NCBI GenBank assembly: GCA_032718475.1
Contig: JAUCBJ010007484.1
Span: 124,001-188,000 of the forward strand
DNA: 64,000 nt
Direction of reading: 5' to 3'
Source of the DNA: Nemertoderma westbladi
Lineage: Eukaryota > Animalia > Xenacoelomorpha
Made by a program: the position numbers and the translations under genes. Shown piece after piece: positions 12,301 through 50,953 of this stretch (position 1 is the first letter of the stretch; every line of letters starts with the position of its first letter). The notes under the pieces were generated by a model. The model had not been told where the DNA came from. It made no database searches and worked only from the letters and a program-made list of their open reading frames with translations.

Positions 12301-12413
12301 TGATCGCGTAATATAAAGTAAAAAATTAAGAGACGGGCTGGCTCTCCTCCACTTTCTTACCCAATTGATATGTTGTTGTAATAATCTAATATTGGGGCGG
12401 CTTTCTCTCGGTT
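9375..12413. mobile_element. Non-coding interspersed repeat, copy 1 (possibly Helentron-like non-autonomous), inserted in the LINE 3' UTR
   Basis: 9858-12413 aligns with 12983-15548. T-rich left end (TTTATGTTACTTGG), right end GGGGCGGCTTTCTCTCGGTT, no obvious TSD, no coding capacity. Confidence 0.6.
10832..10910 (-). ncRNA. tRNA-derived (Pol III A/B box) segment inside repeat copy 1
   Basis: Minus strand GGTCACATAGTCTAGTGGTTA...GGGTTCGAAATCCAATATTGACCTGACCA: A box TAGTCTAGTGG, B box GGTTCGAAATCC, GGTCA/TGACC acceptor-like pairing. Confidence 0.5.
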
Positions 12414-18885: not shown

Positions 18886-19440
18886 TGTGACGGGATCCAG
18901 GAAGGATCCCGATTTATCCGGTTGTTTAATTCACTCGTCCCCGCCGTGTGTATGAAAGGTAAAAAAGGGAATCCGTGTCGTTCGTTGTATATAATAACTG
19001 ATATAGATATAGGGTATATAGATATAGGTGTACGGATAATGTTGTCGTATACAGAAGGCGGGATACGGTAATTAAAGTCCCGGTCGGTCCTTCCCTAGCT
19101 AAACTAACTAACCTAAACTAGCACCAATATTACACTGAGATAACTGAACTGATATGATTACTGCCAAGTGGCTATATTGCACGGTTGGCCTTGTTACTCT
19201 ACCTAATCGATGCCTTTCCCCCCTCTGATTGGTTGATACCCTTGTTGGCGCCCTTTGGAGTGTTTCCGTTCACTCCACCTGTTCTCTCTGGGTTAGGGGT
19301 TTGGCCCCTGACCCTCATTGTGTGTTTCCTTCCCATTTTGTTGGGGTGGCACGAGTTGGTTGATTACCCAATCTCGTGGCTACCAATATTGCTTATCGGC
19401 TTAACTTTATGGGGTGTTAGCGGGATTGAATAAGCTAACA
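18886..19440 (-). repeat. E2 3' LTR
   Basis: Direct repeat of 32376-32926, adjacent to the PPT. Confidence 0.97.
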
Positions 19441-20338
19441 CTCCCCCCCATGCTATCTTCCCGGTGAGAAGATAGCATCCACCTTAAGTGCACTACAATC
19501 CCGCTGGATCCCGATCTAGTATCGGGTGTGGGGTGGAATTCTTTTCTCTCGGAGCCGGCTTTCCAGGCCGCTCCCTATGGGTATGATAACGCTACCCTGT
19601 ATGCCTGGCGTCTCATGTTGGGCCGATCGTGCTCACCTCTCACGTGACTTTTGTTTCCCCAACACTTTTGCCCTATCTCTTCTCCACTCTCACCCTAACT
19701 CTCTCATACCCTCGGACCTCCTCGTCCCTCACTCAGCCTCTTATTCTCCCCCCCCACACACTAGAATTGCGTCCGCACTCTCTCCGCACTTCGCACTATT
19801 GCTCCGTTCCTCAACCCCACTTCGATTGCCTCATCCCTTCTGACGAATCTCCCCCCCCCCCCTCTTGTGCCGTCGCACTCAAGAAGTGTGAAATTGTCTG
19901 GTGTCTCGTCCATAGTGCCATAGTCAGTTATCCCCCCAGTCCCAGTAGCTAATTGAGAAAGGTTGTATGACTATAGTACTTACTCCGAATGTATATTTGT
20001 AGATTACTAATTGCTACGTACGTACATACAAATTGCACTTATATGATTATTTGCATTAATTAGATTTGTACTTAATAGTTCGTACGTCCCACGCGGCGCC
20101 TTCCAGGCGTACCACGTCCAAGTCCCAGTTTCTCTCCCTCGGCCCCCGGAACCTATCTGTTCCTCTGGGAATAGTTCCCCCTGGCGTCCTCTTCCCTGGG
20201 TCGTTTCTTGGTTACCACCGCTCCTCTGGGATCCGCTTTCTGCTTTCGGACCTTCGCCGCCACCTCCTTGCTGATTCCGGTTGTTGGCTCCTTGGGCGCT
20301 GGTGTTATTAGTGCCCGATATCGCTTCGCCGGTGGCCC

Positions 20339-28478: not shown

Positions 28479-31400
28479 TTCTTCTAAACCCGGTTCCGCA
28501 CCCTTCTTGTCTCGAGTGGAGAAAGCGATCTTCCTCCACTTGTTGCGCAGCTAGTTTGGTAGTGCCTGTGCTATCGTGGTGATGTTATTGGACGCGTTGA
28601 GCTCGTATGGCGCGTCTAGCGTCTTCAGCACGATTAGCGCCTTTTCGACCTTGTTAGCGAACGTCTTAATGCTAACGGGATTATCCTGTAGGCCACCCGA
28701 TGTTATGCCTCTCAGTGTCTGTCTGATGATCTTGGCCGGGTGCCCGTATTCCCTATCCAGTGCCCGCCATGCTGTCGTGAAGCCGCCCTCTATTCCTTGA
28801 TATTGCCTCACGATGTCGTATGCTGGGCCTCCTGTGTATACTTGCAGATACTTTAGGCACTCCGCCTGCGTCAAGTTTTTTGTAATTATTTCGTTACTAT
28901 ACATGCGCCGAAACTGTAGATATTCTTCCGGCCTACTCCCATCGAATTTGAATGGTTCCACGGGTGGTAACTCGATCCTCGTTTTCAATGCATCGATCAA
29001 CGTGGCCATCCCCATCGCCTGCACTTCCAATGGGTTCAATGGATGCTGTATAGTTTCTCCTGTCTGGTGCGGTTCGTCCGTCCTATTTCTTGATCTTCTT
29101 TGACTTGGGTATGTCATCGGGGGTAGCGGCCCCCTCCATATCTCTGTGTCACACGACCTATTTTCATCCAAGGGTCTCGTTGTTCTCGCTCCTATCGGGG
29201 TATATTGTTGATATTGTGATGGGGGAATGTCACCCTGTCCCCCCCCCCCACCGGTATGTTTGGTACTGGGGTTGATGTTAATATGTTGGGGCCCATACAC
29301 CTATCCGCAATAATTCCCCCCTCCCCTGGGTATATGTTATGTCCCTGCATGCTGTAGTCATACTGCTGTACTGGTACCGGTATAGGCCTATCAACTTCTG
29401 GCCTACTCGTCGGTATGTATTCCGCGACTTCCGGGTTTAATCCCATTGTCCGCGCTATCCTATCCCCTACATTGCCTCTCTCAGTATGGCCTATGGTATG
29501 TGCAGTAAGGCCTACAGTATGTCATACAGTCTGCATGTGTTGCTCGGGATCGAAGTTTATTCTTCTCGAATAATCCTCCCCGCGGCTACCGTATTCTCGA
29601 TCGGTAGGTACATTCCGTCGGAAAGTTTCTCTTCGACCTCCCTCTCTACTGTTCTCATCTTCGTACCGGTACATCGTGTACCCTTCCATCGGCGCGTAAT
29701 GCACCTCGCCAGGTCGCATCTCTCCGGGGCGACGGCAATCTCCCGGAGTCCGACCCCACTGACTCTCCGTTCTCATCTCGACTACCGACGGCTCGCTATC
29801 TGTCCTCACTCTTCTATCGTTCGCGGCGATACTTTTACTACTGTCTTCTCTTCTTCTCCTTTCAGTGTAGTATTCCCGCTCGTGAGATCTCTCGTCGACC
29901 TCCCGGTTAAACCCCACTGTTCTTCTTCCCTCTTCTGATCGGGCTCGACGCTTCGTCCGCCCTCTCACAACGTCAACCTGTCTCTCTCTGCTCGGTCGCA
30001 CGCCGCTGGGGATACTCACAATCCCCCTATTACTCTCCGTCGCCGGGTGTTGCGGTTTACCTATTTCGGCCCGCGCATTATCCGCTGACGGCTGTGGAGC
30101 TCTCCCTGCCCCCCCCCCTTTCGCCGCTAACTCGCTGTTGTGGGGCCCCTGTAGCCCCCCCCCCCCCCCCCCACTCGCCATATCTAACTTCGCCATCCCT
30201 CACCCCGCTACTATATCCCTCTCTAGTCGACACATCTACCCTACCGCGGTCGGGTCTATTCACCCCCGCCTCTCCCTCTGCTATTGCGTGGCCTACCAGG
30301 CCCTCTACTCCCTGCCTACCAACTACGTGGCCTTCCAGGCCCCCACCGGGTCTATCCAACCCAGCCGCTCCCTGCCTACCAACTACGTGGCCTACCAGGC
30401 CCTCTCTGGGTTGGCTCAATCCCGCCACCTCCGACCTACCAATTGTACGGCCTACCAGGCCCCCGTCTGCCCAGCCATACACGCCCGACGTGTTCACGTT
30501 AATAGCACCCACATTGGAAACGGAATTAATTTGTTCGTTTGAAACAAAATCATTTGAATTATTTTGTAAATTCGGACTTGGATCATTATTTAAATTATTT
30601 GAATTATTTTGCACGTTCAAATTGAAATTATTATTTGTACTTAAATTTAAATTACTGCTACTGGGTAAAGCATTATTTGCTGCAATAAAGGTTTGGTTAG
30701 AGTTATCCCATACGGTACTATTAATATTAACGACGTCTACTATAGCATTATTATTACCCCCCCCGCCCGTACGGTCACACCAGTCTTGGGTCTGTCGTGC
30801 GGTCCCTGTAAGTGGGGTATTAATAAATGTATCCACGGCCCCTGGCTCCTCGAAAATACTCGAGCTAGCCCCACTCTCAGACGCCCCTACTCGCGCCAGT
30901 TCCCGCTCGCGCGTATGTACAGCTTTGTACCCTGTAAGCTCACCCTGACGTTTCTCTAGTTCCTTTTGCTCACACTCCTTCCTTGCCATTCTCTCCTTAC
31001 ACTCCCGTGCGTTCCGTTCGGCCAATTCCAACTCTCTTCTAGCCCCCTCCCTTCGTCTCGCCTCATGCTCTCAGTATTCGTTTTCCTTTCTCTCCTCGCG
31101 CTCTCTGCACTCGTTTTCCTCTTTCGCCTCACGTTCCCTACTTTCCGCCTCACGCTCCCTACGTTCCGCCTCACGCTCTCCGCGCTCATTTTTCTCTCTC
31201 GCCTCGCGCTCTTCTTGTTCCTTCCTCCCTACTTCCTCACACTCCCTAAGGCTTCTCGCGGCCCTTTCGGCCCTCTCCCCGGTTTCCTTAATCAACGCCA
31301 TTTCCCTCTCTAGCAGCACTCTCCCCTCCTCTAACCGTCTACCTACTTCCCTTTGACCTTGCTCTATTAGATTGAGACGGTACGCGGCATTTATATCTCT

Positions 31401-32312
31401 CACCCGTCTTTCTTTCACAGAGGATGTAGCAGACTTATCGGTTGTAACGGATTCCCTCCGCCTCCCCGTCCTACTAACCTTCCCCCGCCTCCCGGAACTT
31501 CCTCCGACCGACGAGGCTGAATCCTCGGGGTTAACCTCGGATTCGTCCTCCTCAGGTCTCTCCCAACCCACTAATTTTACTCCCCGGGCATCGACTAAGT
31601 ACGGCCCTACGTACACTACGCTAGGTTCTATACCCCCATACCGCCACAAGTCATACAGTTCCTCGGCAACCCCTCTTGCTCTCTCCTCGGCCAGTCCTCT
31701 TTGCCCGAAGCGCATTAGATAATAAAAGTGTCTATTCGACTCACCTAGTCTTCTCTTTAGTTTTACCTTGTCTATTGTCGCCCCTCCTCTGGCCTCCTCT
31801 AATAGTCTCCGGGTCGCATTGTAGGCCCGTCGAAGTCAATCAGAAACCCCGACGTCCTCGTCGCCGACCTCTCGTCCGTCTCTCCGGGTCCGGCGTCGTA
31901 CCGTCGGCCCCACCGTCGCCGTTTCGGTGGGCCGCTCGTCGCTCTCAGCCCGTGGCTGGCCGGCGACATCGGTACCGACATCTCCTCCATCTCTTTGGGT
32001 CCGGCGTCGTACCGTCGGCCCCACCATCGCCGTTTCGGTGGGCCGCTCGTCGCCCTCGGCCTGTGGCTGGCCGGCGACATCGGTACGTCGACCCACGTCT
32101 CGTGTCGACTCGTCTCCATCTCCCTCCGTCTCGCTCTCTCCTTCTCTTGGCTCGACCTCGGGTTCCAGGCGGCCCCCCTCATCCTGGACTGCCGGATGAC
32201 CCGTTACCGATGGGTCCGGCGTTGTGGGCCTGTACCGCCTGGTTGCGGCCTCGCGGATCGTTGATTCTTCGTCCGGGGTCCGCGTCGGCGTTGTCTCTCT
32301 CAACTGGCTCAT
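28479..32312 (-). pseudogene. gag: E2 gag with long N-terminal extension (coiled coil, Asn-rich tract, DUF1759-like domain)
   Basis: Track ORFs from 31836-32312 down to 28551-29300; FDGSRPEEYLQFRRMY...KYLQVYTGGPA...LDREYG; homologous to E3 gag. Confidence 0.85.
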
Positions 32313-32375
32313 CTCGCTTGGTGGTTGGTGGCTGGTGGTTTAGCTGGCTAGGGGAACAGTTCCGATTTTAATTAC

Positions 32376-32926
32376 TGTGACGGGATCCAGGAAGGATCCC
32401 GATTTATCCGGTTGTTTAATTCACTCGTCCCCGCCGTGTGTATGAAAGGTAAAAAAGGGAATCCGTGTCGTTCGTTGTATATAATAACTGATATAGATAT
32501 AGGGTATATAGATATAGGTGTACGGATAATGTTGTCGTATACAGAAGGCGGGATACGGTAATTAAAGTCCCGGTCCTTCCCTAGCTAAACTAACTAACCT
32601 AAACTAGCACCAATATTACACTGAGATAACTGAACTGATATGATTACTGCCAAGTGGCTATATTGCACGGTTGGCCTTGTTACTCTACCTAATCGATGCC
32701 TTTCCCCCCTCTGATTGGTTGATACCCTTGTTGGCGCCCTTTGGAGTGTTTCCGTTCACTCCACCTGTTCTCTCTGGGTTAGGGGTTTGGCCCCTGACCC
32801 TCATTGTGTGTTTCCTTCCCATTTTGTTGGGGTGGCACGAGTTGGTTGATTACCCAATCTCGTGGCTCCCAATATTGCTTATCGGCTTAACTTTATGGGG
32901 TGTTAGCGGGATTGAATAAGCTAACA
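32376..32926 (-). repeat. E2 5' LTR
   Basis: Direct repeat of 18886-19440. Confidence 0.97.
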
Positions 32927-34050
32927 CCATCGTTACATAGATGTAGTCCCGTCGATCCGGATTATCCCAGCATTGGTGGATCGTCCACTTCCTATCTACA
33001 TCCTTCCAACGGTTCTCCCGCTCGTGATGTATCGCTAAATCCGGATGCGCGCCGTAGATTTTATTGTAGTCCGGGAACTTCTGTGGTTTAAAATCTAAAC
33101 CGCCATTTAGCACCGCTAGGTAGCCGATACCGGATTTGGTCCATCTCACCTCTCTAAACCCACCCTTAAAGGCAGTGACCCGTAACCAGGCCAGCAGGGT
33201 TTGGGTGTCAATGAAGTGGCTGATCACGCTAATATCCTCTCTATGGTTACTTTTGAATGGAGCGTTGATGTAATCGTTTCAGAGGTCGGCCTTTATATCT
33301 GACCCGATTTTGATAATATCGAAGTCAATCCAATCAATCTGGCTGTCCGTATCTCTTGTTGGGGTGTCGGGAAGATTCGGCACACTAACACCAACCCGTC
33401 CAGGGTTCCGAGGATGACGATTAGCGACCGACTGTACTCTTTTGTCCCGTATTTCTCTTTATAGTCGTCTCGGTTTTGGATGACTGTCATTCGTTCCTCT
33501 CGCAGCGTCGCCGTACATTCCACCAGGTTTCCCCAGTGTGCGAGATATGTACTCTTATCGTCGATGAAACTCTGACATCGCGCCATTGTAACCGCCTTCG
33601 GAGTTGGCGTCGCGTTGCCCTCGTTGTCGTATATCAAGCACCGGGATTTGTAAACGCTTCGCCGGAACGTATCCCAAAATGACAACTCTCCTCCTCCAGT
33701 TGCCTCAGCGTTCCGAGTCCTTTTCAGGCTCGTACTAGCATTGGACAACCAGAGCGCCTGCAGGTTACGGGTATCCGGGACCTCCCTCCGGGAGAAACGA
33801 ATGACTCACACATTCTTGCTCAACAGGTCGTTCCATTTCACATCAAAACTAGGAGATCCAGGCTGTGGATAGTCCAATAAATCAATTGTAGTACGTAATT
33901 CGCCAAGAATCTGGCGATTCGGGTCCAATTTGTAAATTACGTCGTTACAAATTAATTCAGTTAATTATAAATCCAGAAAGTCTGATTCTATAGCGACTGC
34001 AGAATAGTTATTTTTAATGTAGTTAATATTATTGATATATAGGCATCTAT
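32927..34050 (-). pseudogene. E1 accessory ORF, N-terminal exonuclease-like half; degraded
   Basis: GSPSFD...FRRSVYKSRCLIYDNEG...IVILGTLDGLVLV...KSG...FIDTQ...GIGYLAVLNGGLDFKP matches E2 GTPSLD...FIESVNRGGYMILDDEG...LLHLAAPNGDIFL...KVG...LLDMQ...GAVAMGQLLGLVCHKP. It joins 18885 across the E2 TSD. Confidence 0.75.
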
Positions 34051-36377: not shown

Positions 36378-37847
36378 TCAACAGGATGGTAAGGGTTTAA
36401 ACGGTTTGTTATTGTCACCAATGTCCACAGCAGGATCCGGAGTAGGGAACTTATCACCTCTCGTGGAGTCACCACTGTAATTGCCTTCGAGAAGGCAAAG
36501 CCTCTGGATAGGGCGTTGGTAGTGGCCCTTTGCCGTTCGTATCATCACCGTTCTCGCAAGTCCATCCTTGCCAGGGGTTATCTCCACGACACGCGCCACA
36601 GGCCAGTGGACGCAGTCTTTACGGTCTTCCTTGACGAGTACCATGTCGCCAACTGCGACATTCCGGTACATATCATTCCATTTCCTCCTCGTTCAAAGAA
36701 TTATAAGGTACTCCTGGGACCAAATTATCCACCAATGCGCCACCAGCGCTTGGGCTTTCTTCCAGTTTGTGTGTTTCGCGATGTTGTTGGGATCCGGGAA
36801 CATGGCCTCTGGAAGTATGTTGGTCTTGGGTCTACCGAGGAGATGGTTGGGTGTTAGGGGTTCCAGATTGGTTGGGTCGTAATGGATGGGAACGATTGGC
36901 CGGTTGTTTAAGGTAGCCGTGATTTCGCAGAATGTGGTGCGCAATGTATCATGAGTGACCCGGGTATCCCCTAACATGATCCGCATGGATCGTTTAACTA
37001 AATCAATGAGTTTCTCAAATACCCCGCTCATATGGGGTGCTAAGGGTGTCTGGAAGTGCCATTGGATATGGTGTTCCTTCCAGATGTGTGATGCGGTTTC
37101 ATTAGTGAACCATCCTTCGATAGCCTCTCTGAGTTCCCTTTCTCCTCCCACAAAGTTCGTTCCATTGTCCGAGTACATGTGCCGGCATGAACCATTATTC
37201 GCTACGAACCGACGCAGGGCGTTGATGAATGCGTGCTGCATGAGGTTCACCACAAGGTCCAGGTAGATCGCCCTCGACTGTAGGCATGTAAAGATGGCTC
37301 CCCAACATTTAATGTTGGATCGTCGCTCTATAACTGTAAATGGTCCGAAGCAGTCTACGCCAGTTAAGTAGAACGTCGACGAGTCGGACTGGAGTCGCGT
37401 GGCTGGCAGATCGGCCATTCTTTGGGTGAGTGGTGGTGATAGATATCTCCTACAAGGAAAACACTGTTTCAATACTTTCCGAATTAGCGGCTGGATGTGG
37501 GTGATCCAGTATCGTTGACGGATATTGGCTATGATCCAGTTTTGGCCCGCGTGATGGTTTTCCTTGTGACATTGTTGAACTAACAGCTTAGCTAGTGTAG
37601 ACGTCCGTGGCAGAAGTGCCGGATACTTAATTTCATACTCAACTGGGGCGTTCACCATCCAGGTATTAAGGCGGATCAATCCGTCCTCTCCCATCATGGG
37701 TCTCAGCTGGTAGACCGGGCTATCAGGTTTCAAAGTCCTGCCTGCATTGAGCTGCACCCATTCGTTGGGGAAACTTTCTTTCTGGACATATCTTACAATA
37801 CATTTATCTGCGATAATGAGTTCTTGTACACTAAGCTGAACTATCGG
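36378..37847 (-). pseudogene. pol: BEL/Pao integrase (probably E1)
   Basis: CHKENHHAG..IRQRYWI..CFPC..MADLPATR..TGVDCFGP..SDNGTNFVG..APHMSGVFE..LNNRP..LTPNHLL..WPVARVV..GKDGLAR..RPIQRLCLLE. Confidence 0.93.
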
Positions 37848-38099
37848 TGTTAGCTTATCCAATTCCGCTAACACAAACCCATAGAGTGAGCCATTAAGCA
37901 ATATTGGGAGCACGAGGTTGATTACCAATATCAACCTCGTGTTACCCCAATAAAGTGGGAAGGGAAGGAGAAACACACAATGGAGGTCAGGGGCCAAACC
38001 CCTAACCCAAAGAGAACAGGTGGAGTGAACGGGAACACTCCAAAGGGCGCCAACAGGGGTATCAACCAATCAGAGGGGGGAAAGGCATCGATTAGGTAC

Positions 38100-38156
38100 A
38101 GCAATAAGGCCACCGTGCAATATAACCAGTTACCAGTAATCATACCAGTCAGTTAT
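38100..38156 (+). promoter_or_regulatory. Putative LTR promoter (TATA-like plus TCAGTT initiator)
   Basis: TATAAC at ~38121 and TCAGTT about 27 nt downstream; the E2 LTR has a TATAGC...TCAGTT counterpart. Confidence 0.4.
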
Positions 38157-38513
38157 CCCAGTATCATATTGGTGCTAGTTAGGTTAGATAGTTTAGCTAG
38201 GGAAGGACCGGGACTTTAGTTACCGTATCCCGCCTTCCGTGTACAACAACCTATATCTATATCTTATTAGACTGATCATTATATACACCGAACATCAGAA
38301 CTCATTTTACCCTTTACACACGGCGGGGACGCGTGAACTAAACATCGGATAAATCGGGATCCCTCCTGGATCCCGTAAACTAACATCGAGCTGCCGCCCT
38401 AGCTAAACTGTAAAAGTAACTAAAACCAACTGCTGCCCTAGCTAGTAACTAAATCCGTGCTGCTGCCCTGGATAAACTCAATAACCACCAGCCACCAATC
38501 ACTAAAGACGAAG

Positions 38514-40412
38514 ATGAGTCGAGAGAGAGGAACGACACCGCCGCGGACCCCGGACGACGATCTAACGATCCGCGAGGCCACGGCGAGACGATACGAACCC
38601 ACGACGCCGGTCGATGCTACGTCGACCACGTCGACGCCGGTTGACGCCACGTCGATAACGAGCAACCCGGCGAACCAAGATGTGGGGGGTCGTCTACAGC
38701 GAGAGAGCGAGTCGAGTAGAGGAGAGAGCGAGACGGGGGAGGAGGAAGACGAGTCGACGCGGAGCGAGGGTCGACGTAGCGATGTCGCCGGTCAGCCACA
38801 GACCGAGGGCGACGGACGGCCCACCGGAACGGCGACGGTGGGGCCGCCGGTACGACGCCGGACCCGGAGAGATGGAGGAGAGGTCGGCGACGAGGATGTC
38901 GGGGTTTCTGATCGACTTCGACGAGCCTACGCCGCGACCCGGGAACAACTGAAGGAAGCTAGAGGAGGGGCTGAGATAGACCAGGTGAAGTTGAGGAGAC
39001 GACTAGGTGAGTCGAACAGATACTTTGATTACCTAGTGCGTTCTGGGCAGGGAGAACTAGCCGAGCGAGAGAGCGAGAGGGGTTGCCTTCGAACTGTTTG
39101 GGCTATGGGAACGTAGGGGTATGGGGCCTGGTGTAGTGTACATAGGGCCATACTTAGTCGATGCCAGGGAAGTTAAGTTAGTGGGTTGGGCGGGACCGCA
39201 CGAGGGCGAATCCGAGGTTAGCTCCGAGGATTCGGTCTCGTCGGTCAGCGAGGACCCCGGAAAGCGGGGGAAAGTTGGTAGGACGGAGGGGCGGCGGGAG
39301 ACCGTCGCAACCGATAAGTCTGCTACATCCTCCGCAAAAGAAAGAAGGGTGCAGGAGATAAATCTGGCTGCATATAAATTAAAAATTGAAGAATTAGAGT
39401 GGCGACTGAGGGGAAGGAAGGAGCGAGAGAGTGAACGCGAAGAGCGTGAGGCAAGAGAACAGAGCGTGCGGTACACGTACAGTACGCATAGTAGCCGTAC
39501 GGGCGGGGGGGGGGGGGGGGGGGGGTAGTAGTAGTACGTTAGGAAATGTTGGTATTAATAGTACCGTAGTAAATAACCCTAATCCCTTTATTACAGGAAA
39601 TATTTTACCCAGTAATAGTAATTTAAGTTTAAATTCAGATAATAATATTAATTCAAATATTCAGAATAATTCAAATAATTCGAATAATAATTTAAATTTT
39701 GAAAATAATAATAATTCTAATTTAAATAATTTAAATAATAATCCCGTCTCAAATTCTAATAATTTAATTGATTTAACAAATAATATTGGGAATGGTGCTA
39801 TTAATGTGAACGCGTCAGACGTGTATAGCCCGGCAGACGGCGTCCTGGTAGGCCACGTAGTTAGTAGGCAGGAAGTGGCAGGGTTGAGCCAACCCGACCG
39901 CGGCCTGGTAGGCCACGTAGTTGGTAGGCAGGAAGTGGCGCGGTTGAGCCAACCCGAGGTGGGCCTGGTAGGCCACGCAGTAGTAGAGAGAGAGGCGGGG
40001 GTGAATAGACCCAGCCGTAGTAGAGACAGTGTGTCGACTAGAGAGGGGTGTAGAGACGAAGTAAGAGATATTGAAGTTAGATGTGGCGGGTGGGGGGGGG
40101 GCTACGGGCGCCCCACCACATGAGATTAGCGGCGAGAGAGGGGGGGCAGAGAATGCCCCACAAGAGGGGTGTAGAAGTGTAGTAAGAGGTAGTGAAGTTA
40201 GAAGTGGCGGGTGGGGGGGGGGCTACGGGCGCCCCACCACATGAGATTAGCGGCGAGAGAGGGGGGGCAGAGAATGCCCCACAAGAGGGGTGTAGAAGTG
40301 TAGTAAGAGATAGCGAAGTTAGAAGTAGCGGGTGGGGGGGGGGCTACGGGCACCCTACCGCGAGAGATTAGTAGCGAGAGAGGGGGGGCAGGGAGTGTCC
40401 CACAGGCGTCGG
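38514..40412 (+). pseudogene. gag: E3 gag N-terminal part, interrupted by E4
   Basis: MSRERGTTPPRTPDDD... homologous to E2 MSQLRETTPTRTPDEE; VVYIGPYLVDAR; Asn-rich tract; ~121-bp triplication at ~40045-40405. Confidence 0.85.
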
Positions 40413-40667
40413 TATAATGTTGAGGTAATTATCAATAATTATCAAATATAAAATACAATTTATTATAACAATAAACTTTAATATTTATTAGAACTTATCT
40501 ATTAGTTATTCTTACTGCATACTGTTTACAAATATATAAATCAAATTATTAACTCTAAGGATCTCACTAGCAGATCAATCAAAATCTTTTTTTCTTCAGT
40601 ACCGGTAGTTGTTATTATATAATCAATAATAAAAAGTCTTTTTACTAATCAAACAAAATACAGTACA

Positions 40668-43600
40668 CTATACCACCCCCCGTATAAGATGTGGAGCATC
40701 AGTTATTTTAAAATAGCATCTTGATTTTTCTTTATTAAAAGTAACAGTCTTTTTGGGTTTTTTTATATCACGTTTACTGTTTGTTAAAAAATGTTGAGCT
40801 AAATTAACAGCGTTGTCTAGCAAACGTGTACGAATTTTGAAATAATTACAATCGAATTTGGAAATTTGTAACTTGTTTACAAAATCAGTTCTATTGGTAG
40901 CAAAATATCTAACAGGTAAGGCGTTAGCTGGACAAATATTTCCGTATATTTTTGTATTCTCGGGTAATATTAATCCAGGCCAGGGTGGATAGTTTTTACT
41001 TTTTCCTATTATGACGTCATCAGTTCGTACATCGGAATTTCCATTAGATCTTTTGGATAGAATTGAAGTAGGTTTAGCTTTATCTTGTTCTCCTCGATTA
41101 GTTAGTAGTTTTTGTTTTACCTGAGTAATTCCAGTTGTGATTTCTTTTCTCTGTGATTCATTTATGACGAATGCAGGTTTTGTACGATCGATAGAAATTT
41201 TCTCATGGTATTTTTTCTTTAACACAGTGATAGTTTTATCGTCTCTGTCCAAAACTTCAAATGGACCAGAGTAACAGTCACTTAAAGTTGATTTCTTTCT
41301 GTCGTTTCGTATCCACACGTGAGTTGCTTTATGTAGTTCCTTAGGAATATATGTTGGTGCTGTGTGTTTGCGTTCTGGAGCAGCAAATGAGTTTATTGTT
41401 TCAAACAAATTGTCCATATAATTCGGTAAATATGCTTCAGTTTCATTCTTGGAAGAAGGAATTAGGAATTGTCCAGGTAGGTCAATGGGTCCGCCATAGA
41501 CCATTTGGGATGGACTATAACCTTGGCAGTTCACTGATGCGCGCAATCCTAAAAGGATTAATGGCATTGTCTCTGACCAGCTGCGATTTGTTGAAGCATG
41601 TGCTCTTAGAGCATTTTTCAATGTGCGATGGAATCTCTCCACGGCTGAATTTGACATCGGGTGGTAAGTTGTTGTTCGTTTGCGATTGATGCCTAATTGT
41701 CTCATTAGTTCTCCCCACACAGTGGACTCAAATTGAGTTCCTCGGTCGGAAATTAATTCTCTAGGGACTCCAAAACGACTAATCCACGCAGTAATTAGGG
41801 CGTTTGCTACTGTTTCTGTATCAATTTGCTTTACAGGAACTACTTCGGGCCAGCGTGTGAAGCGGTCAATGATAGTCACCAAGTGAGTAAAATCCTTTGA
41901 GGGAGGTAATGGCCCCACTAGGTCTATGTGAATGGTATGGAATCGATCTGTTGTAGGTATTGTACCAATAGGAGATTTCGTATGTCGCACAATTTTGCAT
42001 TGCTGACACCTAAGACATTGGCGGCACCATGTTCGTATATCTTTACTCATACCTGGCCATACATGTTTCTCTGCAATGAGTTTGATTGTTGCCCGGTGCC
42101 CCAAATGTGCCAGATTATGATGTTTCTCAAATGTTGTGAAACGCATACTTGTTGGTAAATAAGGACGTAAAGTTGACTTTTCTTCATTACACCAAATGAA
42201 ATTGTCACCCACAGGTATCTTCTTCAATGGTAGCGTTGTGTTCTTAAAGAACTCTTGCAGTGAAGTATCAGAGTTTTGGGCTTCGACCAGTGACTCATCA
42301 CATGTAGTAGTTATGGTCAATAAAGATCTTGATAACGCGTCAGCTACTATGTTGGATGAACCAGCAATGTGCTTTATAGTACAATTGAACTCAGATATAA
42401 ATGAAATCCACCTTGTTTGCTGTGGTGTTGGGTTTTTCATTGTGAGCATGTCAATCAATGGTTTATGGTCCGTTTTAATCACAAAATCTGTACCGAGTAA
42501 CCACGGGAAGTGTTTAAGTGATAGGTAAATGGATAATAATTCTCGATCGAAAGTAGATTTTCTCGATTCATTGGAACTAAATTTCGCAGAAAAGAATCCT
42601 AAAGGTTGTTTGTTGTTGTCTATAATTTGATGAAGAACTGAACCAGCTGCTACATTGGAAGCATCTGTTGTAATTTCGAGTTCCAATTTAATAGTCTTTG
42701 TGTTTGGAAATGCAAGAACCACACTATCTGTAATAGCTATTTTCAGTTTATTAAAAGCTTCCGTTTCATTGTCACTCCAATTTAATGTGTTATTGCTTTT
42801 GGATTTTCGATCTCGCGTCATGTCGGTTAAAGGAGCAGCGATTCCCGAGAAATTTGGAACAAATCGGTGATAGAATCCTGCCATGCCTAGCAGGCGTTTG
42901 AGTCCTTTAATGGAGGTGGGTTTTGGGTAATTAACAATTGCCTCAACTTTCTCAGGTAGTGGTTTGATGCCTTCAGCTGAAATGTGGGCACCTACAAACT
43001 TTACACTGCTGCAAAAGAAAATACATTTTTCTTCTCGTAGTCGTAAACCAAATATATTTAAACGATGTAATATGGAGTCTAGATGTTGTAGATGTTCTAT
43101 GGGATTTTTGCTAGCAACCAATATGTCATCTAGATATACCCAAGCAAAAGCAATGTCTTGTAAAACTGTATCCATAAGACGTTGAAAAGTCTGAGAAGCA
43201 TTTCTTAGTCCATACGGCATTCTCCGAAAAATATACAAACCAAATGGGGTAATTACAGCAGCTTTATGTTGATCATCTTTTGCTATTGGTATTTGAGTGT
43301 AAGCAGATTGTAAATCTAATTTGGAAAATATTGTAGAACCATGTAGAGCACCTGGTATTTCGCTTAAATTCGGCATAGGATATCTATCCGGAATTGTCTG
43401 AGCATTTAAACCACGGTAATCACCGCAAGCGCGAAAAGGTGTTGTTTTCGAGTTTGGTTGTGGAACCATATGTAATGGTGATGCATATGGGGATTCACCA
43501 CGGTAGCATATACCTTGGGATTCCCATTTAGCAAATACCTTCTTTGCCTCATCCAAACGTTCGCCAAAAAGTCGTCTGGCTTTAAAATGGGATGGATGTC

Positions 43601-44267
43601 CAGTAGTGAGAATATTATGTTCTATATCATGTTTAATGGGTTGGAAAATATTTACGGGTTTAAATATGTCTGGGTATTTGTCCAAGAGGTCATTAACCTT
43701 ACTGTTGAACTCTTGATTTTCTACTGTTATTCTTCGAATTGTTGGTGTTAATTGGATTTCAGTTTTATTAATTTGCTTCTCATTTGACTTGCGGTTGGTT
43801 GTATCTTTGTTTTGTGTTGGATCATTGCTGGAGAATGTTATATCATTTAGAGGAATTAATCGATTGTTAGTGCAATCTACTAGAAGCTTGTGCTTTGCAA
43901 GAAAATCTGCCCCTAGTATTGGTTGAGGAATGTCTCCAATGTAAAATGTCCAGGAATAGAGTTTATTATTAACATTGGGTAAAGTAAATTGTAGTTTTTC
44001 TATACCAATGACGTTTATTTCAGTTTGGTTGGCCGCTTTTAATATAATGTTTGGAACTGGACGCATATCGGAAGTAGCATATTGTGTAGGCAGTACACTA
44101 ACTTCACTACCACTATCCGCTAAAAATTCTTTTACAAGTCCAGTTGCGGTCACATATATAGCGTTGACTCCATCACCAGCCGCTCGAGTGGTGGAGTCTA
44201 TCAGTTTCCCGGTGTCTTTCTCCCCCCAGCAATCTCTGGGTCCCACTGGCAGTTTTCTCCCATACAC
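40668..44267 (-). CDS. pol: E4 Pol: protease-RT-RNase H-integrase with C-terminal PWWP domain (expressed by -1 frameshift)
   Basis: FLADSGSEVS; YASPLHMV, DYRGLN, YLDD; TTDAS, DRELL, TDHKPL, ADALSR; HNLAHLG..CLRC, DLVGPLP, SDRGTQF, VERFHR, GPF; tail IIGKSKNYPPWPG...LPVRYFATNRTDFV. Confidence 0.96.
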   Translation of the reverse strand: MYGRKLPVGPRDCWGEKDTGKLIDSTTRAAGDGVNAIYVTATGLVKEFLADSGSEVSVLPTQYATSDMRPVPNIILKAANQTEINVIGIEKLQFTLPNVNNKLYSWTFYIGDIPQPILGADFLAKHKLLVDCTNNRLIPLNDITFSSNDPTQNKDTTNRKSNEKQINKTEIQLTPTIRRITVENQEFNSKVNDLLDKYPDIFKPVNIFQPIKHDIEHNILTTGHPSHFKARRLFGERLDEAKKVFAKWESQGICYRGESPYASPLHMVPQPNSKTTPFRACGDYRGLNAQTIPDRYPMPNLSEIPGALHGSTIFSKLDLQSAYTQIPIAKDDQHKAAVITPFGLYIFRRMPYGLRNASQTFQRLMDTVLQDIAFAWVYLDDILVASKNPIEHLQHLDSILHRLNIFGLRLREEKCIFFCSSVKFVGAHISAEGIKPLPEKVEAIVNYPKPTSIKGLKRLLGMAGFYHRFVPNFSGIAAPLTDMTRDRKSKSNNTLNWSDNETEAFNKLKIAITDSVVLAFPNTKTIKLELEITTDASNVAAGSVLHQIIDNNKQPLGFFSAKFSSNESRKSTFDRELLSIYLSLKHFPWLLGTDFVIKTDHKPLIDMLTMKNPTPQQTRWISFISEFNCTIKHIAGSSNIVADALSRSLLTITTTCDESLVEAQNSDTSLQEFFKNTTLPLKKIPVGDNFIWCNEEKSTLRPYLPTSMRFTTFEKHHNLAHLGHRATIKLIAEKHVWPGMSKDIRTWCRQCLRCQQCKIVRHTKSPIGTIPTTDRFHTIHIDLVGPLPPSKDFTHLVTIIDRFTRWPEVVPVKQIDTETVANALITAWISRFGVPRELISDRGTQFESTVWGELMRQLGINRKRTTTYHPMSNSAVERFHRTLKNALRAHASTNRSWSETMPLILLGLRASVNCQGYSPSQMVYGGPIDLPGQFLIPSSKNETEAYLPNYMDNLFETINSFAAPERKHTAPTYIPKELHKATHVWIRNDRKKSTLSDCYSGPFEVLDRDDKTITVLKKKYHEKISIDRTKPAFVINESQRKEITTGITQVKQKLLTNRGEQDKAKPTSILSKRSNGNSDVRTDDVIIGKSKNYPPWPGLILPENTKIYGNICPANALPVRYFATNRTDFVNKLQISKFDCNYFKIRTRLLDNAVNLAQHFLTNSKRDIKKPKKTVTFNKEKSRCYFKITDAPHLIRGVV
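44166..44210 (-). promoter_or_regulatory. Programmed -1 ribosomal frameshift signal
   Basis: Slippery GGGAAAC directly before the gag TGA, then a stem GACTCCA...TGGAGTC 5 nt downstream of the heptamer; pol is in the -1 frame. Confidence 0.8.
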
Positions 44268-45355
44268 TTAGTAGCATTCTTACCGAATTTCCAATGGTAC
44301 CAACAAAATTTTCCATCAGGGTTGAAGGAACGTGATTTGGAACGAGTTTGGCGGTAATCTCTTGGAGCTGATGGAGATCTCGAGGCGGAATATCTTTCTC
44401 GACTGTTCCCTGGATTACGACTCAATCCTCGTGAGCGATCGTCTTGAGTGGATAACCGGTTGATGGCATGGGTTAACTTGGTCATTTGCTGTGTGATATT
44501 ACTGCACCAGAGTTCCATGGGGTATCCATCGGCTGCAGTGGCGCCTCCAGTTGTAGTTGTGTTGTTTGGATTAGGCCTAAACGTAGAGGTGTGGTTGATT
44601 GGAACTGTAACACTGTTTACATTGACTGGGCTGGTATATATTTGTTCAACCATACGATCCGCAATTTCAGCGAGTTTTTCGGTTGAGATTCCATCAATTG
44701 ATATTAGCGCTAAACGGACAGGTTCGGGTAAAATCTCCAAAAATCGTAGTTTAACTATGTTTTCGTTATGCGGAGCTAAACGTAACAGTTGTCTCAGGGC
44801 GACGGAGGGTTTGCGGTCGCCAAGGGTTTGATCCTGGAGCAGCTTCTTTAGTCGTCGTTCCTCACTGTCGTCAAAAAATTTTATTACACTGGATTTTATA
44901 GTTTCAAAATTATCGGAAACATGTACGCCGCTGTCGAAGATTACATTTGTTGGTAGGACTCTTAGCAGACTGTTTTTCATAACTTCTTCGGATGAGTTAG
45001 AGAGGATTTGTTCGATTTGATCAAACCAGATCCTTGAATCTTTTTCGTAGAAGTTCGGTAATTTCACCGTAATTGTAGTCGGATTCGGGATTAACGATGG
45101 GTTGCCACCAACGTGGGAAGGAGGTTTAGTTAGAGTCTGTTGGACGTGATTGAAAGCTAATTGAATAACGGATGGAAGTTCGCTATTAAGAGCGTCGAGG
45201 AGGTCCTGTTTAGTGGATGGCATTCCAGCAAAGTTGGGATCGTCTTGATGGATTAATTGTAACATGGCTTCTAATATAGCCTTGGGTTGGTTGTGTAAGT
45301 CTGGCATTATGATTATACGGTACCGGTCAGCCGGTGCTGATCTTCCAATTATCAC
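44201..45355 (-). CDS. gag: E4 Gag (first ATG 45307)
   Basis: KLPNFYEKDSRIWFDQIE, LGDRKPSVALRQL, CHCC finger CWYHWKFGKNATKCMGENC typical of the CsRn1 lineage. Confidence 0.93.
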   Translation of the reverse strand: MIIGRSAPADRYRIIIMPDLHNQPKAILEAMLQLIHQDDPNFAGMPSTKQDLLDALNSELPSVIQLAFNHVQQTLTKPPSHVGGNPSLIPNPTTITVKLPNFYEKDSRIWFDQIEQILSNSSEEVMKNSLLRVLPTNVIFDSGVHVSDNFETIKSSVIKFFDDSEERRLKKLLQDQTLGDRKPSVALRQLLRLAPHNENIVKLRFLEILPEPVRLALISIDGISTEKLAEIADRMVEQIYTSPVNVNSVTVPINHTSTFRPNPNNTTTTGGATAADGYPMELWCSNITQQMTKLTHAINRLSTQDDRSRGLSRNPGNSRERYSASRSPSAPRDYRQTRSKSRSFNPDGKFCWYHWKFGKNATKCMGENCQWDPEIAGGRKTPGN

Positions 45356-45400
45356 TTCGGTACACAGTTTTGTAGTAAGTTTTTTTTTATCTCAGTAGTT

Positions 45401-45417
45401 CGACGTCTGGGTCACCA
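45401..45417 (-). promoter_or_regulatory. Primer-binding site, tRNA-Trp type
   Basis: TGGTGACCCAGACGTCG 2 nt downstream of the 5' LTR; resembles the tRNA-Trp PBS TGGTGACCCCGACG. Confidence 0.8.
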
Positions 45418-45679
45418 TATATAATGTTGAGGTAATTATCAATAATTATCAAATATAAAATACAATTTATTATAACAATAAACTTTAATATTTATTAGAA
45501 CTTATCTATTAGTTATTCTTACTGCATACTGTTTACAAATATATAAATCAAATTATTAACTCTAAGGATCTCACTAGCAGATCAATCAAAATCTTTTTTC
45601 CTTCAGTACCGGTAGTTGTTATTATATAATCAATAATAAAAAGTCTTTTTACTAATCAAACAAAATACAGTACACTATA

Positions 45680-48600
45680 GTCGGCGGATAATGCGCGGGC
45701 CGAAATAGGTAAACCGCAACACCCGGCGATGGAGAGTAATAGGGGGATTGCGAGTATCCCCAGCGGCGTGCGATCGAGCAGAGAGAGACAGGTTGACGTC
45801 GCGAGAGGGCGGGCGACGGAACGTCGAGCCCAGTCAGAAGAGAGAAGATTAGTAGAGTTTAACCGAGAGGTCGAAGAAAGAAGGAGTGAAGATAATAGGA
45901 GAGTCGTTGCTAGGGGCAACCGGAGAGCAAGGACGGATAGCGAGCCGTCGATAGAAGAGATGGAGTTAGGGAGCCAGTGGGGTCGAACTTCGGGAGATTG
46001 CCGTCGCCCCGGAGAAACGCACCGCACACTAAGAGAGGGGTACAGGACGTACCGATACGAAGACGAGAGCAGGATAGGGGATCGAAGGGAAACTTCCCGA
46101 CGTGATATAGCTGCCGATCGAGAGTACGGTAGTCGCGGGGAGATTCGAGATTCGAGAAGAATAAACTTCGATTCGGAAGGGCGCATGCAGACTGCAGGAC
46201 ATACTGTAGGCCTTACTGCACATACTATTATAGGCCATGCTGGGAGAGATAGAGTAGGCGATAGGGTAGCGCGGACGACGGGATTAAACCCGGAAGTCGC
46301 GGAGTACATACCGGTAGGTAGGCAAGAAGTGAATAGGCCTATATCAGTACCGGTACAGCAGCATGACTATAATTTCCAGGGACACAACATATATCCAGGG
46401 GAGGGGAGAGTTATTGTAGATAGATGTATGGGCCCCAATACATTAACATCAACCCCAGTACTAAACATACCGGTGGGAGGGGGACAGGGTGACATTCCCC
46501 CATCACAATATCAACAATATACCCCAATAGGAGCGAGAACATCGAACCCCTTGGACGAGAGCAGATCGTGCGACACGGAAATATGGAGGGGGCCGTTACC
46601 CCCAATGATATATCCGACGCAACAAGGAAATCAACAACAGATAGGACGGACGGACCGCACCCAACAGGAGAAACTATACAACATCCATCGAACCCATTAG
46701 AAGCGCAAGCGATGGGAATGGCCACATTGATCGATGCGTTAAAAACTAGGATCGAGTTACCACCTGTGGAACCATTTAAATTCGATGGGAGTAGGCCGGA
46801 AGAATATCTACAGTTTCGGCGCATGTATAGTAACGAAATATTAAGTAAGAACTTGACGCAGGCGGAGTGCCTAAAATATCTGCAAGTATATACAGGAGGC
46901 CCAGCATACGACATCGTGAGGCAATACCAGGGCATCGAGGGCGGCTTCACGACAGCATGGCGGGCGCTAGATAGGGAATACGGGCACCCGGCCAAGATCA
47001 TCCGGCAAACCCTGAGAGGCATAACATCGGATGGCCTACAGGACAATCCCGTTAGCATAAGGACCTTTGCAAACAAGGTCGAGAAGGCGTTAATCGTGTT
47101 AAAGACGCTAGACGCACCATACGAACTCAACGCGTCTAACAACATCACCACGATAGCGCAGGCACTGCCGGTCTGGTTACGAAGGAAGTGGAGGAAAATC
47201 GCTTTCTCCACACGTGAGAAGAAAGGTGCGGAACCGGGCCTAGAAGAGATGTCGAGCTTCCTCAACTATGAAGCCGAATTAATAACAGACCCAGTCTATA
47301 GCGAGGATAGTTTGGGGACAAGCCATAAACCCGAACATAATCCGACGGATCCATTCTCAAGAGTAGGACAATCACTACCACATGCGGCCACACAGGGGAC
47401 TGCTAGTCCACAGTTAGCTGGTAGCAGGGCCACACCGTGGCAGGGACAGAAAGAAAATAACACCATAAATAAACATAATCCCAATATACCCAGTAGGCCG
47501 AGTACAGACAACCAAAACACTAAATCGGTACATATAAACCTACGCGCGATACGTGAGGGACTATACAGGGAACGCTATAATCCAGGATTCGAATGTCAAT
47601 TACATCGGGACGGAACACATAAGACCAGGAGTTGTAAGCACTGGCAAGCGTTGCCCAAACAAGATCGTATAGCCTACACAGACGCAAACGGACTATGTCA
47701 TCGATGTGTGGTAGAAGGACACAGGTCCGGAGAGTGTAGAGAAACAGCAGTTAGAGAGTCCGAGACTGGAGGCCAGGCAATGGCCACAAGCACGACAGAA
47801 GAGGAGAAGAAGAGAAAAGTACTACTCGGGGTAGTACCAGTAAAGATATCAGGAGAGGGCGGTCGATCAGTAACGACATTAATGCTGGTCGACAGCGGAG
47901 CAGCCTTCACGCTGGTGGAGAACTGGGTGGCCGAAGAGATAGGGCTAAAGACGAGGCCGAACAGAATGGCGGTAACTACCGTCTCGAGTAAAGATGAGGT
48001 CCTGGAGACGAGGACGGGGCGGTGCAGGATAGCAGCGATTGCACCGGGATGCGGCTATGGGGCGACGATCGACCCCATCCACGTCATCGAATCGATAAAC
48101 ATCAACGCCAGGCGACCAACCAACATTGAGGTCGAGCAGTATAGATTCCTGGACGGTATCGATTTCTCAATACCAAAGGTGGACGTTAGGAAGGTGTCCA
48201 TTATAGTAGGAATGGACTGCCCGACGGCCCATGAGAGGATGAAGACGGTCTTCGGCGAAGACAGGCAGCGGGACCCGACGGCGATCCTCACGCCGTTCGG
48301 ATGGACGCTTAGCGGCCCAGTTAAAATCAACATCCCATGCAGTGTGACAGAGACATCTGGGTGCATGATACCAGGCACCGAAGACGCAGAGGAAGTAGAG
48401 GAGAAACGAGAGATAGTAGAGCCAGATAGGGAGGTGACAGTAAGAAAGTGGGCAGAGGAGAGTAGGTTTCCCAACAAGCATCGGTATGGAGATGGAGCGG
48501 AGCGGACGGCGAGGTGTCCGGAGGACAACACTCCGGGGGAGTGCCCGGAGGAGTGTCGGGAGGAGTGTCTAGAGGAGTGTCTGGAGGAGTGTCCAGAGGA

Positions 48601-48946
48601 GTGTCCGGAAGAGACGCAGGTCCGGTTTGGAGGCATACCGACAAGGGGGAAGTCGAGAAGGAAGGCAGGATGGAAAGGGATAGGACTATTATTCTACCTT
48701 CTGTTCTGCCTGTTCTTTCACTTTCTATTCATTCTGCCGGCGGGAGACAACAAGGAGAGAGGTGGCATTTTGATGCCAGGAGATGAGCTAGTTAAGAAGA
48801 CGGTGGAGAGACCCAACCTTAGGGTGGTGAAAGAGGGAGAACCAATTCCTGGTGAGATGGAATTGGCGAAGAGAGTGCGGCGAATCCTACAGGACCTACA
48901 AGAGCAGCAGTGGGAGAGTGCCTGTTGGAAGAATCGCCCTAGTTAA
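45680..48946 (+). CDS. gag: E3 gag (DUF1759-like, zinc knuckles) plus protease with an aberrant C-terminal tail (ORFs 45729-46700 and 46568-48946)
   Basis: Near-identical to E2 gag/PR up to TPFGWTLSGP...ETSGCM. It then has (ECPE)n repeats, a hydrophobic segment and remnants of the integrase 3' end. Confidence 0.85.
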
Positions 48947-49074
48947 GAGGTTTAGTCGTCCAATATTTTGGACTGAGGGGGGTGGGAATGAGGGCGAGAC
49001 GCCCTTCCCACAAAAATTAATTATTTAATTTAAATAAATAATAATAAATAATTAAATAATTAAATAATAGTTAG

Positions 49075-49835
49075 TAGAAGTAAGAAGTAGTAGGTAGAAG
49101 GTGAGTAAGTTAGAAGGCGGCGGGGTAAGGGAGTGTGGCATATTGTCATGCCACGAGTAGTAGTAGGGAGGTTGTGGGCACCGTAAGCGCCACGTAGAAG
49201 GATAGTAAGTAGAGAAGTTAGAAGGCGGCGGGGTAAGGGAGTGTGGCATATTGTCATGCCACGAGTAGTAGTAGGGGGGTCGTGGGCACCGGAAGCGCCA
49301 CGTAGAAAGTAGTAAGAGATGGGTTGTGGGCACCGGAAGCGCCACGTAGAAAGTAGTAAGAGAGGGTTGTGGGCACCGGAAGCGCCACGTAGAAAGTAGT
49401 AGGAGAGAGGTTGTGGGCACCGGAAGCGCCACGTAGAAAGTAGTAGGAGAGAGTGGTTGTGGGCACCGCAAGCGCCACGTAGATAGAGGTATTAGTTGAG
49501 GTGAGATGTAGATAGAGTAGAGTAGTAGAGACGGGCACATAGGGTGCCAGAGAGTAGAGTAGTAGAGAGGGCACATAGGGTGCCAGCTAGTAGAGTTAGA
49601 GATAGTAGAGTGTTAGTAGAGTTAGAAAGATAGTAGCAGAGTAGAAGCAGTAGTAGAGTGGTTGTGGGCACCGTTAGCGCCACGTAGATGGAGGTAGAGT
49701 TAGTAAGAGGGTACGTAGTACCAGTTGTGGTTGTGGGCACCGTTAGCGCCACGTAGATGGAGGTAGAGTTAGTAAGAGGGTACATAGTACCGGTTGTGGT
49801 TGTGGGCACCGTTAGCGCCACGTAGATAGAGATAG
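49075..49835. repeat. Tandem array in the E3 3' region
   Basis: Repeated GGTTGTGGGCACCG(GA/TT/TA/CA)AGCGCCACGTAGA with variable spacers. Confidence 0.9.
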
Positions 49836-50953
49836 AGTTAGTTGGAGGATTTTAGTCAGAGTTAGAAAAGAGTTAGTAGACTTAGCAGAAAGTTAGAGAG
49901 TTCTAGTTAGAGTTAGTAGAAAGTTAGAGGCTTTTAGTTAGAGCTAAAAGTAGTAAGAGTTAGCAGAGAGCAGAGTTAGTAGTTAGTAGAGTTAGATAGT
50001 TAGTGTTAGTAAGTTAGATAAGGTAGATAGTATGATAGCACAGGGGTAGCATAAGAGATTAGGGCCTTAGGGAGTGGCAGAGAGTAGAGAGGAGATAGTG
50101 AGAAGAGCTGTTGGCGAGAGAGTGCGATTCAGGTGTGGGGAGAGTGTAAGAGTGGGGAGAGAGCGAGTTGAGTTAGAGAGCGAAGTTAGAGTGGCGAGAG
50201 TGTTGGGGAAACAAAAATTGTGTGAGAGAAGCGCACGATCGGCCCGACACGAGACGCCAGAGGGTAGTGACATCATACCCATAGGGAGCGGCCTGGAAAG
50301 CCGACTCCAAGAAAATAACCCCACCCCACACCCGATAATAGATCGAGTTCCAGCGGAATTGTAGCGCACTTTAGTTGGATGCTATCTTCTTACCGGGAAG
50401 ATAGCATGGGGGGAGTGTTAGCTTATCCAATTCCGCTAACACAAACCCATAGAGTGAGCCATTAAGCAATATTGGGAGCACGAGGTTGATTACCAATATC
50501 AACCTCGTGTTACCCCAATAAAGTGGGAAGGGAAGGAGAAACACACAATGGAGGTCAGGGGCCAAACCCCTAACCCAAAGAGAACAGGTGGAGTGAACGG
50601 GAACACTCCAAAGGGCGCCAACAGGGGTATCAACCAATCAGAGGGGGGAAAGGCATCGATTAGGTACAGCAATAAGGCCACCATGCAATATAACCAGTTA
50701 CCAGTAATCATACCAGTCAGTTATCCCAGTATCGTATTGGTGCTAGTTAAGTTAGATAGTTTAGCTAGGGAAGGACCGGGACTTTAGTTACCGTATCCCG
50801 CCTTCCGTGTACAACAACCTATATCTATATCTTATTAGACTGATCATTATATACACCGAACATCAGGACTCATTTTACCCTTTACACACGGCGGGGACGC
50901 GTGAACTAAACATCGGATAAATCGGGATCCCTCCTGGATCCCGTCACAATCGG

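Follow-up and report, generated by a model that had tools for sequence, protein, structure and literature searches.

Can a retrotransposon carry on its own integrase the kind of chromatin reader that lentiviruses borrow from their host? The question is raised by 64,000 nucleotides of DNA from Nemertoderma westbladi (contig JAUCBJ010007484.1, positions 124,001 to 188,000 of the forward strand; this whole stretch is called the window here), in which an intact Ty3/Gypsy retrotransposon, CsRn1-like and very young, occupies positions 40413-45679 on the minus strand. Its Pol continues past the GPF module of the integrase into a PWWP domain. We propose that this domain, likely acquired in a single capture from a chromatin gene of the host, is a chromatin tether encoded by the element itself; judging from its sequence, from structural models and from analogy to known systems, we would give this a probability of about two in three.

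A PWWP domain inside the integrase tail

The end of Pol comprises four parts (positions here and below are those of the window):

41169..41351, minus strand: integrase GPF module, residues ~973-1033, a predicted folded beta domain (predicted local distance difference test, pLDDT, 78-93); the letters GPF are at residues 1001-1003
41031..41168, minus strand: variable linker, residues ~1034-1079, predicted to be disordered
40773..41030, minus strand: PWWP domain, residues ~1080-1165, a predicted five-strand barrel with a helix at residues 1148-1164
40737..40751, minus strand: terminal R/K-x-V-x-F motif (KTVTF), the customary integrase end in this group

The preliminary description of the window, made from the letters alone, had quoted PWWP-like residues here and proposed Pfam and AlphaFold checks on the end of Pol; the residues are found at that place and in the integrase frame, and both checks return a PWWP domain. 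The Pfam family PF00855 (curated cut-off 25.6 bits) matches Pol residues 1084-1142 (nucleotides 41018-40842) with 30.0 bits when the whole Pol is scanned and with 35.1 bits (E 2e-8) when the translation of 40770-41025 is taken alone, and all 10 aligned PWWP members match it at E 0.1 or better. No Chromo family accompanies PWWP in the Pfam listing of this Pol at E up to 1. The AlphaFold2 model of the last 122 Pol residues, built from a 10-row alignment, has a mean pLDDT of 83.5 with five strands and the helix, and a second model gives GPF and PWWP as two folded domains separated by a low-confidence linker (pLDDT <50 across model residues 67-105). Structural searches with the PWWP model return PWWP domains or PWWP-containing chains in every row shown, 43 of 43 with Foldseek and 50 of 50 with VIA-align, in which the best match is 9q7u_L (Z 11.4, root-mean-square deviation 3.0, 90 aligned) and HRP-2 (8z6o_A) reaches Z 10.4 (2.8, 85 aligned). 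The claim of a real PWWP domain past the GPF module is thus upheld by family match, model and structural comparison, and the domain order bears out that it occupies the position where chromoviruses bear their chromodomain.

The junction between integrase and PWWP is bridged with zero mismatches by single contigs in each of three sequencing runs (2,504 nucleotides in X1, 1,520 in X2 and 873 in X3); X1 is possibly the source of this DNA, and a different study supplied X2 and X3, both from one further sample. An origin of the fusion in an assembly join is excluded by these bridging contigs from two samples.

The terminal motif bears on how the domain came to lie where it does. After 25 of 209 Pols had been set aside for lack of a usable tail, a motif of the form R/K-x-V/I-x-F/W is present in the tail of 136 of the remaining 184, all without PWWP; 500 shuffles gave 7.5 on average and no more than 15. 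It follows the PWWP domain in 15 of the 22 sequences of the family described below, and is also kept in P0015, a relative without the domain. The R-x-V-x-F motif is ancestral, so PWWP was placed within the tail of the integrase and not added at its end, which argues that it would stay on the mature integrase. The motif resembles the PP1-docking RVxF motif; our literature search found no report of RVxF in CsRn1-like integrases.

A conserved family of PWWP-bearing Pols

PWWP-integrase fusions in relatives, which the preliminary description had suggested seeking, do exist. Among 120 relatives listed for the integrase region, nine have a precomputed PWWP match, and a HMMER scan of 1.84 billion representative proteins with a GPF+PWWP profile brought 147 new proteins, of which a further 12 are of element type. 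On the family profile these 12 reach 47.9-113.7 bits per domain, host PWWP proteins no higher than 46.7, and 10 of the 12 exceed the Pfam cut-off. Eleven are Gypsy-type fragments; in ten of them the GPF module is kept, if only by its end, and P0243 consists of PWWP and tail only. The full set of 22 sequences is made up of the window copy, 20 other Gypsy-type proteins and P0325, which is of another type and is treated separately. The named relatives of the window Pol are Pols of flatworms, nematodes, arachnids, molluscs and fish; they and the BEL/Pao elements of the window point to an animal host.

In trees of the core formed by reverse transcriptase (RT), RNase H and integrase, from which PWWP was excluded, the 10 PWWP Pols of sufficient length and P0015 form one branch, with a support of 99 in FastTree (115 rows) and 100/98 in IQ-TREE (30 rows, with a bootstrap that had not quite converged). 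Seven of the 121 proteins were dropped for core matches shorter than 420 residues, and one of these, P0011, was put back by hand. P0015 is nested in the branch beside P0013 (100/98); when the remaining Pols serve as outgroup, the history of the domain reads as one gain and one loss. Since the cores of the PWWP Pols are only 51-59% identical to that of the window Pol, the lineage is an old one. Identity to the window copy is 22-31% in PWWP versus 0-11% in the linker for the 10 relatives aligned.

Other searches did not enlarge the family. A PWWP-only word search of longer proteins gave no new member (five matches from 7,994 candidates, four already known and one the host protein Mes-4), and a whole-Pol profile search no new PWWP member among the 120 proteins that it listed, two fragments of the clade stopping before the tail. 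DNA of relatives was found neither in the viral nor in the metagenome contigs searched; genome contigs gave only L001, which is without the tail. L001 (3,447 bases) is of the same retrotransposon clade; the metagenome-assembled genome in which it lies is bacterial, so that it is likely a eukaryotic contaminant there. All three runs also show pieces of a sister subfamily that is more diverged from the window element. In P0017, a PWWP-bearing Pol, a PF01205 domain (IMPACT/UPF0029-type) is listed too, in an insert between protease and RT.

The remaining member, P0325, is a 200-residue ENA protein from a contig of 8,091 bases, in which DUF5641, the terminal domain of the BEL/Pao integrases of the window, is followed in frame by a PWWP of the element type, which scores 80.9 bits with the family profile; the terminal R-x-V-x-F motif is absent. 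This one protein fragment makes it possible that the PWWP module moved between superfamilies of elements that have long terminal repeats (LTRs), and hints that targeting modules do so.

Which host gene gave the domain is less clear than the earlier proposal of a LEDGF/HDGF-like descent had it. The single window sequence finds HRP-3, LEDGF and HDGF as its best matches among solved structures, and HRP-2, HRP-3 and LEDGF take the top Foldseek ranks. On the 22-row profile, NSD3 (44.3 bits) ties with the HDGF family (HRP-2 45.2, LEDGF 42.7 and HDGF 42.0), and the profile spans the helix in NSD3, not in the HDGF family. In VIA-align, DNMT3, BRPF, MSH6 and HRP-2 score alike, their Z values differing by no more than about 1. 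With these ties the specific descent was not borne out. A tree of the domain itself (88 columns, 39 rows) separates the 22 element domains, P0325 included, from 17 host domains; it names no donor because the branch has a support of only 89/72 and the host rows are a chance set without a LEDGF sequence. Among host proteins, the top per-domain scores with the family profile (up to 46.7 bits) belong to a beetle N-PAC/GLYR1 protein, P0228, in which PWWP occurs four times; it is a candidate donor without a counterpart among the solved structures compared.

The aromatic cage and the candidate mark

In LEDGF the cage consists of M15, Y18, W21 and F44, the last two doubling as core residues, and basic residues of the PWWP domain bind nucleosomal DNA (PMC3663649). 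The substitutions M15A, Y18A, H48A and E49A cost more specificity than affinity there, and with M15A and E49A specificity for nucleosomes trimethylated at lysine 36 of histone H3 (H3K36me3) is lost (PMC3663649). We mapped these positions onto the 22 domains through the alignment of the window copy with LEDGF.

In the window copy, Y18 corresponds to Tyr1093, W21 to Trp1096 and F44 to Tyr1121, giving aromatic residues at all three cage positions. Of the cage Y, W and F named in the preliminary description the first two stand; the third position is tyrosine, the phenylalanine being only the next residue. M15 corresponds to Ser1090, E49 to Arg1126 and A51 to Asp. As neither specificity residue of LEDGF is kept, the window copy is predicted to be less mark-selective than most of its relatives. 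Across the family, the tryptophan of W21 and a proline are invariant (22/22), the F44 position is aromatic in 19 of 22, the Y18 position in 16 and the M15 position is Phe or Trp in 13; the three cage aromatics are complete in 14 domains, and 21 of the 22 have a positive net charge. In LEDGF, M15 and Y18 matter more for methyl specificity than for affinity (PMC3663649), so that the conservation of these positions in the family favours a kept cage. Chromatin binding by the domain appears likely. The most likely mark for the family would be H3K36me2/3, although we put its chance at somewhat short of even; H3K36me specificity is less likely for the window copy than for the family.

Proposed tethering and its alternatives

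In the mechanism that we propose, a PWWP domain captured once from a host chromatin gene into the integrase tail would be retained on the mature integrase and swing on the flexible linker. Its basic surface would grip nucleosomal DNA and its aromatic cage methyl-lysine, so that the integration complex is tethered to nucleosomes; this would raise the efficiency of integration and bias the choice of site. PWWP has been kept while the adjoining linker diverged beyond recognition, and tethering as such suffices for HIV (PMC2706977).

A number of observations weigh against this reading. P0015 is an intact-looking Pol without PWWP, and the sample of runs X2 and X3 (S2) holds a copy or allele in which, at 40872-40947, 74 PWWP-coding bases are swapped for 3, breaking the frame; the domain is thus dispensable for at least some elements. 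Eight of the 22 domains are without one cage aromatic (one of them through a gap). Only 4 of 22 have an acid at positions 46-49, in the loop past the third cage aromatic, and the E49 position is Lys or Arg in 16 of 22; the HRP-2, NSD2, NSD3 and DNMT3B domains compared all have an acid in that loop. As W21 and F44 are core residues, their conservation may mean folding alone. Among the 22, the end branch of the window PWWP, at 1.2, is longer than any other, and the sole visible insertion lies inside another retrotransposon, a BEL/Pao element.

The alternative that survives best, possible though doubtful, is that PWWP is a mark-blind clamp on DNA or nucleosomes, or a reader of some other mark, for example of silent chromatin, that steers the element into repeats and away from genes. 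The same steering has been proposed for chromoviruses and for CopiaMBD, and the insertion sits in a very high-copy retrotransposon. The basic character of the family, with Lys or Arg in place of the cage-side acid in most members, suits a clamp; the LEDGF cage mutants retain affinity while losing specificity (PMC3663649), and plant group II chromodomains are described as lacking cage aromatics (PMC3605345). However, most members keep aromatic lid residues at the M15 and Y18 positions, and one insertion site tells little in a repeat-rich genome.

Somewhat weaker, and in our opinion unlikely, is a strict mimicry of LEDGF, in which PWWP reads H3K36me2/3 and directs the element into transcribed gene bodies. 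LEDGF plays this part for lentiviruses (PMC13582839), the single-sequence and Foldseek comparisons rank it and its closest kin first, and the window copy retains the Y, the W and a third aromatic. The same copy, however, departs from LEDGF at M15 (Ser), E49 (Arg) and A51 (Asp), the donor scores are tied across PWWP families, and the single insertion is within a BEL/Pao element. Targeting to transcribed, H3K36-methylated chromatin had been part of the preliminary description, and the Ser/Arg changes together with the lone visible insertion speak against it. A wider picture, of an old animal retrotransposon lineage whose LEDGF-style, H3K36me-reading integrase tether steers insertion and whose module also passed to a BEL/Pao integrase, is tentative and rather improbable as a whole.

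It is very unlikely that PWWP acts after or apart from integration, as a freed domain that competes with host readers or aids the evasion of silencing. Like alternatives were left open for CopiaMBD (PMC6673714), and the long disordered linker could contain a protease site, but PWWP precedes the motif that normally closes the integrase, and Pol is predicted to arise by frameshifting only, hence in small amounts. That the domain is a passenger, either functionless captured host sequence or an assembly chimera, is hardly credible: the loss in P0015 and the broken variant in S2 would agree with it, but PWWP is in frame across Pols of such divergent cores, its Trp and Pro are invariant beside an unalignable linker, and the junction is bridged in two samples.

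Comparison with known systems

The self-encoded tether that we favour has partial counterparts. Chromoviruses (MAGGY and the plant Tekay, Reina and Galadriel elements) likewise have a methyl-lysine-reader-type domain past the integrase GPY/F module of a Ty3/Gypsy Pol (PMC3605345, PMC5053271). Theirs is a chromodomain, whereas the window element has PWWP without a Chromo match; MAGGY reads methylated lysine 9 of histone H3, whereas PWWP domains read H3K36me and nucleosomal DNA (PMC3663649). The CsRn1-like group has been reported to be without a chromodomain, unlike chromoviruses (PMC2582038), and by its sequence the window element is not a chromovirus.

The lentiviral tethers LEDGF/p75 and HRP-2 also tie a PWWP domain to a retroviral-type integrase (PMC5053271), with the fold and the three cage aromatics in common. 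They differ from the window element, in which the link is covalent, element-encoded and without an integrase-binding domain, and in which the M15 and E49 of LEDGF are not kept. CopiaMBD, a group of Copia elements of arthropods that have captured a methyl-CpG-binding domain (MBD), also has a host-derived reader in frame beside the integrase, and is likewise monophyletic, conserved and proposed to bias insertion (PMC6673714). It belongs to another superfamily and carries another reader, and its binding and insertion bias have been measured (PMC6673714), whereas the window element is known from sequence.

Grau-Bove et al. (bioRxiv 10.1101/2021.11.30.470311) report 823 gene models in which chromatin domains, for the most part PHD and Chromo, are combined with those of transposons; their main text names no PWWP-retrotransposon fusion, and their Supplementary Table 6 or Fig. 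5d may list one. Our literature search, which did not extend to that Supplementary Table 6, found no report of a PWWP-integrase fusion in a retrotransposon, and a conserved fusion of this kind is apparently undescribed so far. The published readers encoded by retrotransposons that our search met are chromodomains, PHD fingers and MBDs, for the most part linked to silent chromatin, and lentiviruses reach H3K36me3 chromatin through the PWWP domain of host LEDGF (PMC13582839). A PWWP domain built into the element's own integrase would be an independent answer to the tethering problem that lentiviruses solve with LEDGF, and the lineage possibly encodes the first element-borne reader of an active-chromatin mark. 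If the tether does read H3K36me and steer insertion, it would be the first case of an element that itself encodes a counterpart to the borrowed host factor of lentiviruses. The 22 sequences with graded cages, a domain-less sister and a young intact copy form a natural series for testing the effect of a reader on insertion.

Structure and setting of the element

The features of the retrotransposon outside the integrase tail are:

45420..45679, minus strand: 5' LTR, 260 nucleotides, with termini TAT...ATA, not TGT...ACA; 1 base differs from the 3' LTR
45400..45417, minus strand: primer-binding site of tRNA-Trp type, TGGTGACCC at 45417-45409, 2 nucleotides past the 5' LTR
44201..45307, minus strand: gag, 368 residues counted from the first ATG, with DUF7041 and a CX2HX9CX4C knuckle
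44204..44210, minus strand: predicted -1 slippery heptamer GGGAAAC, abutting the gag stop on its 5' side and opening the pol frame
40668..44267, minus strand: pol frame, stop to stop without internal stop, 1199 residues
40673..40686, minus strand: polypurine tract, adjoining the 3' LTR
40413..40672, minus strand: 3' LTR, 260 nucleotides
40408..40412, plus strand: left copy of the 5-bp target-site duplication GTCGG
45680..45684, plus strand: right copy of the same duplication, 5 bp

The earlier statement that the element is intact and very young agrees with the LTR pair (259/260 identity), the 5-bp duplication and the unbroken Pol, whose order is protease (DSG), RT (YLDD), RNase H, integrase with HHCC and D,D-35-E, GPF module, PWWP and terminal motif, with every catalytic motif intact, D,D-35-E included. 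The passage from gag to pol would occur by a -1 frameshift at GGGAAAC, a heptamer that L001 likewise has at its gag/pol overlap. As the pol stop codon is within the first bases of the 3' LTR, there is no space for env.

CsRn1, PwRn1 and AgCR share with the window element the tRNA-Trp primer-binding site, whose reported pattern the window site fits, the CHCC-type Gag knuckle and the GPF module, and this group likewise has a gag/pol overlap in the -1 frame, the LTR end ATA, no env and no chromodomain (PMC2582038). A 4-bp duplication, an LTR start TGT and a CX2HX9CX3C knuckle are reported for the group (PMC2582038), in contrast to 5 bp, TAT, X4 and the added PWWP here. We call the element CsRn1-like, not a member, because of its 5-bp duplication and X4 knuckle spacing; the label comes from traits described in PMC2582038, and the trees have no CsRn1, PwRn1 or chromovirus reference among their rows. 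L001 has the exact CX2HX9CX3C spacing.

The insertion is nested in another element:

37847..50944, plus strand: BEL/Pao element hosting the Gypsy insertion, with LTRs at 37847-38376 and 50415-50944, 99.2% alike

The Gypsy element lies 5' of the gag of this element, which was identified by DUF1759 and an aspartyl protease, and empty-site forms of the insertion point are present in other copies of the host repeat. With the Gypsy LTR as query, no flanks of further insertions were recovered in four sequencing runs; run X5, of the same species label, gave no match to the element, which does not prove absence. Of 15 other frames of the window scanned for families, 10 belong to transposons and 5 have none, a host-gene family being found in 0 of the 15.

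The BEL/Pao family is likely very abundant, since it is matched by thousands of contigs in all three runs. In both BEL/Pao copies the interval between 5' LTR and gag (38442-40404 and 45681-46700 on the plus strand; 29522-32339 on the minus strand) holds several long low-complexity frames and tandem repeats of 60 and 121 nucleotides. Between the pol and the 3' LTR of the BEL/Pao element with LTRs at 18885-19441 and 32375-32927 lies a frame of 789 residues (20339-22708, minus strand), possibly a cargo gene. It has no Pfam match, three CCHC-like knuckles near its end (a weak match, E 0.048) and a first half that looks exonuclease-like by eye only, an unconfirmed impression.

From 57338 to ~62500 runs a 29-nucleotide satellite, matched by at least 171 overlapping windows, and two more tandem arrays and a 2.6-kb direct duplication of 93% identity occupy 3581-5684, 6225-8463 and 9858-15548.

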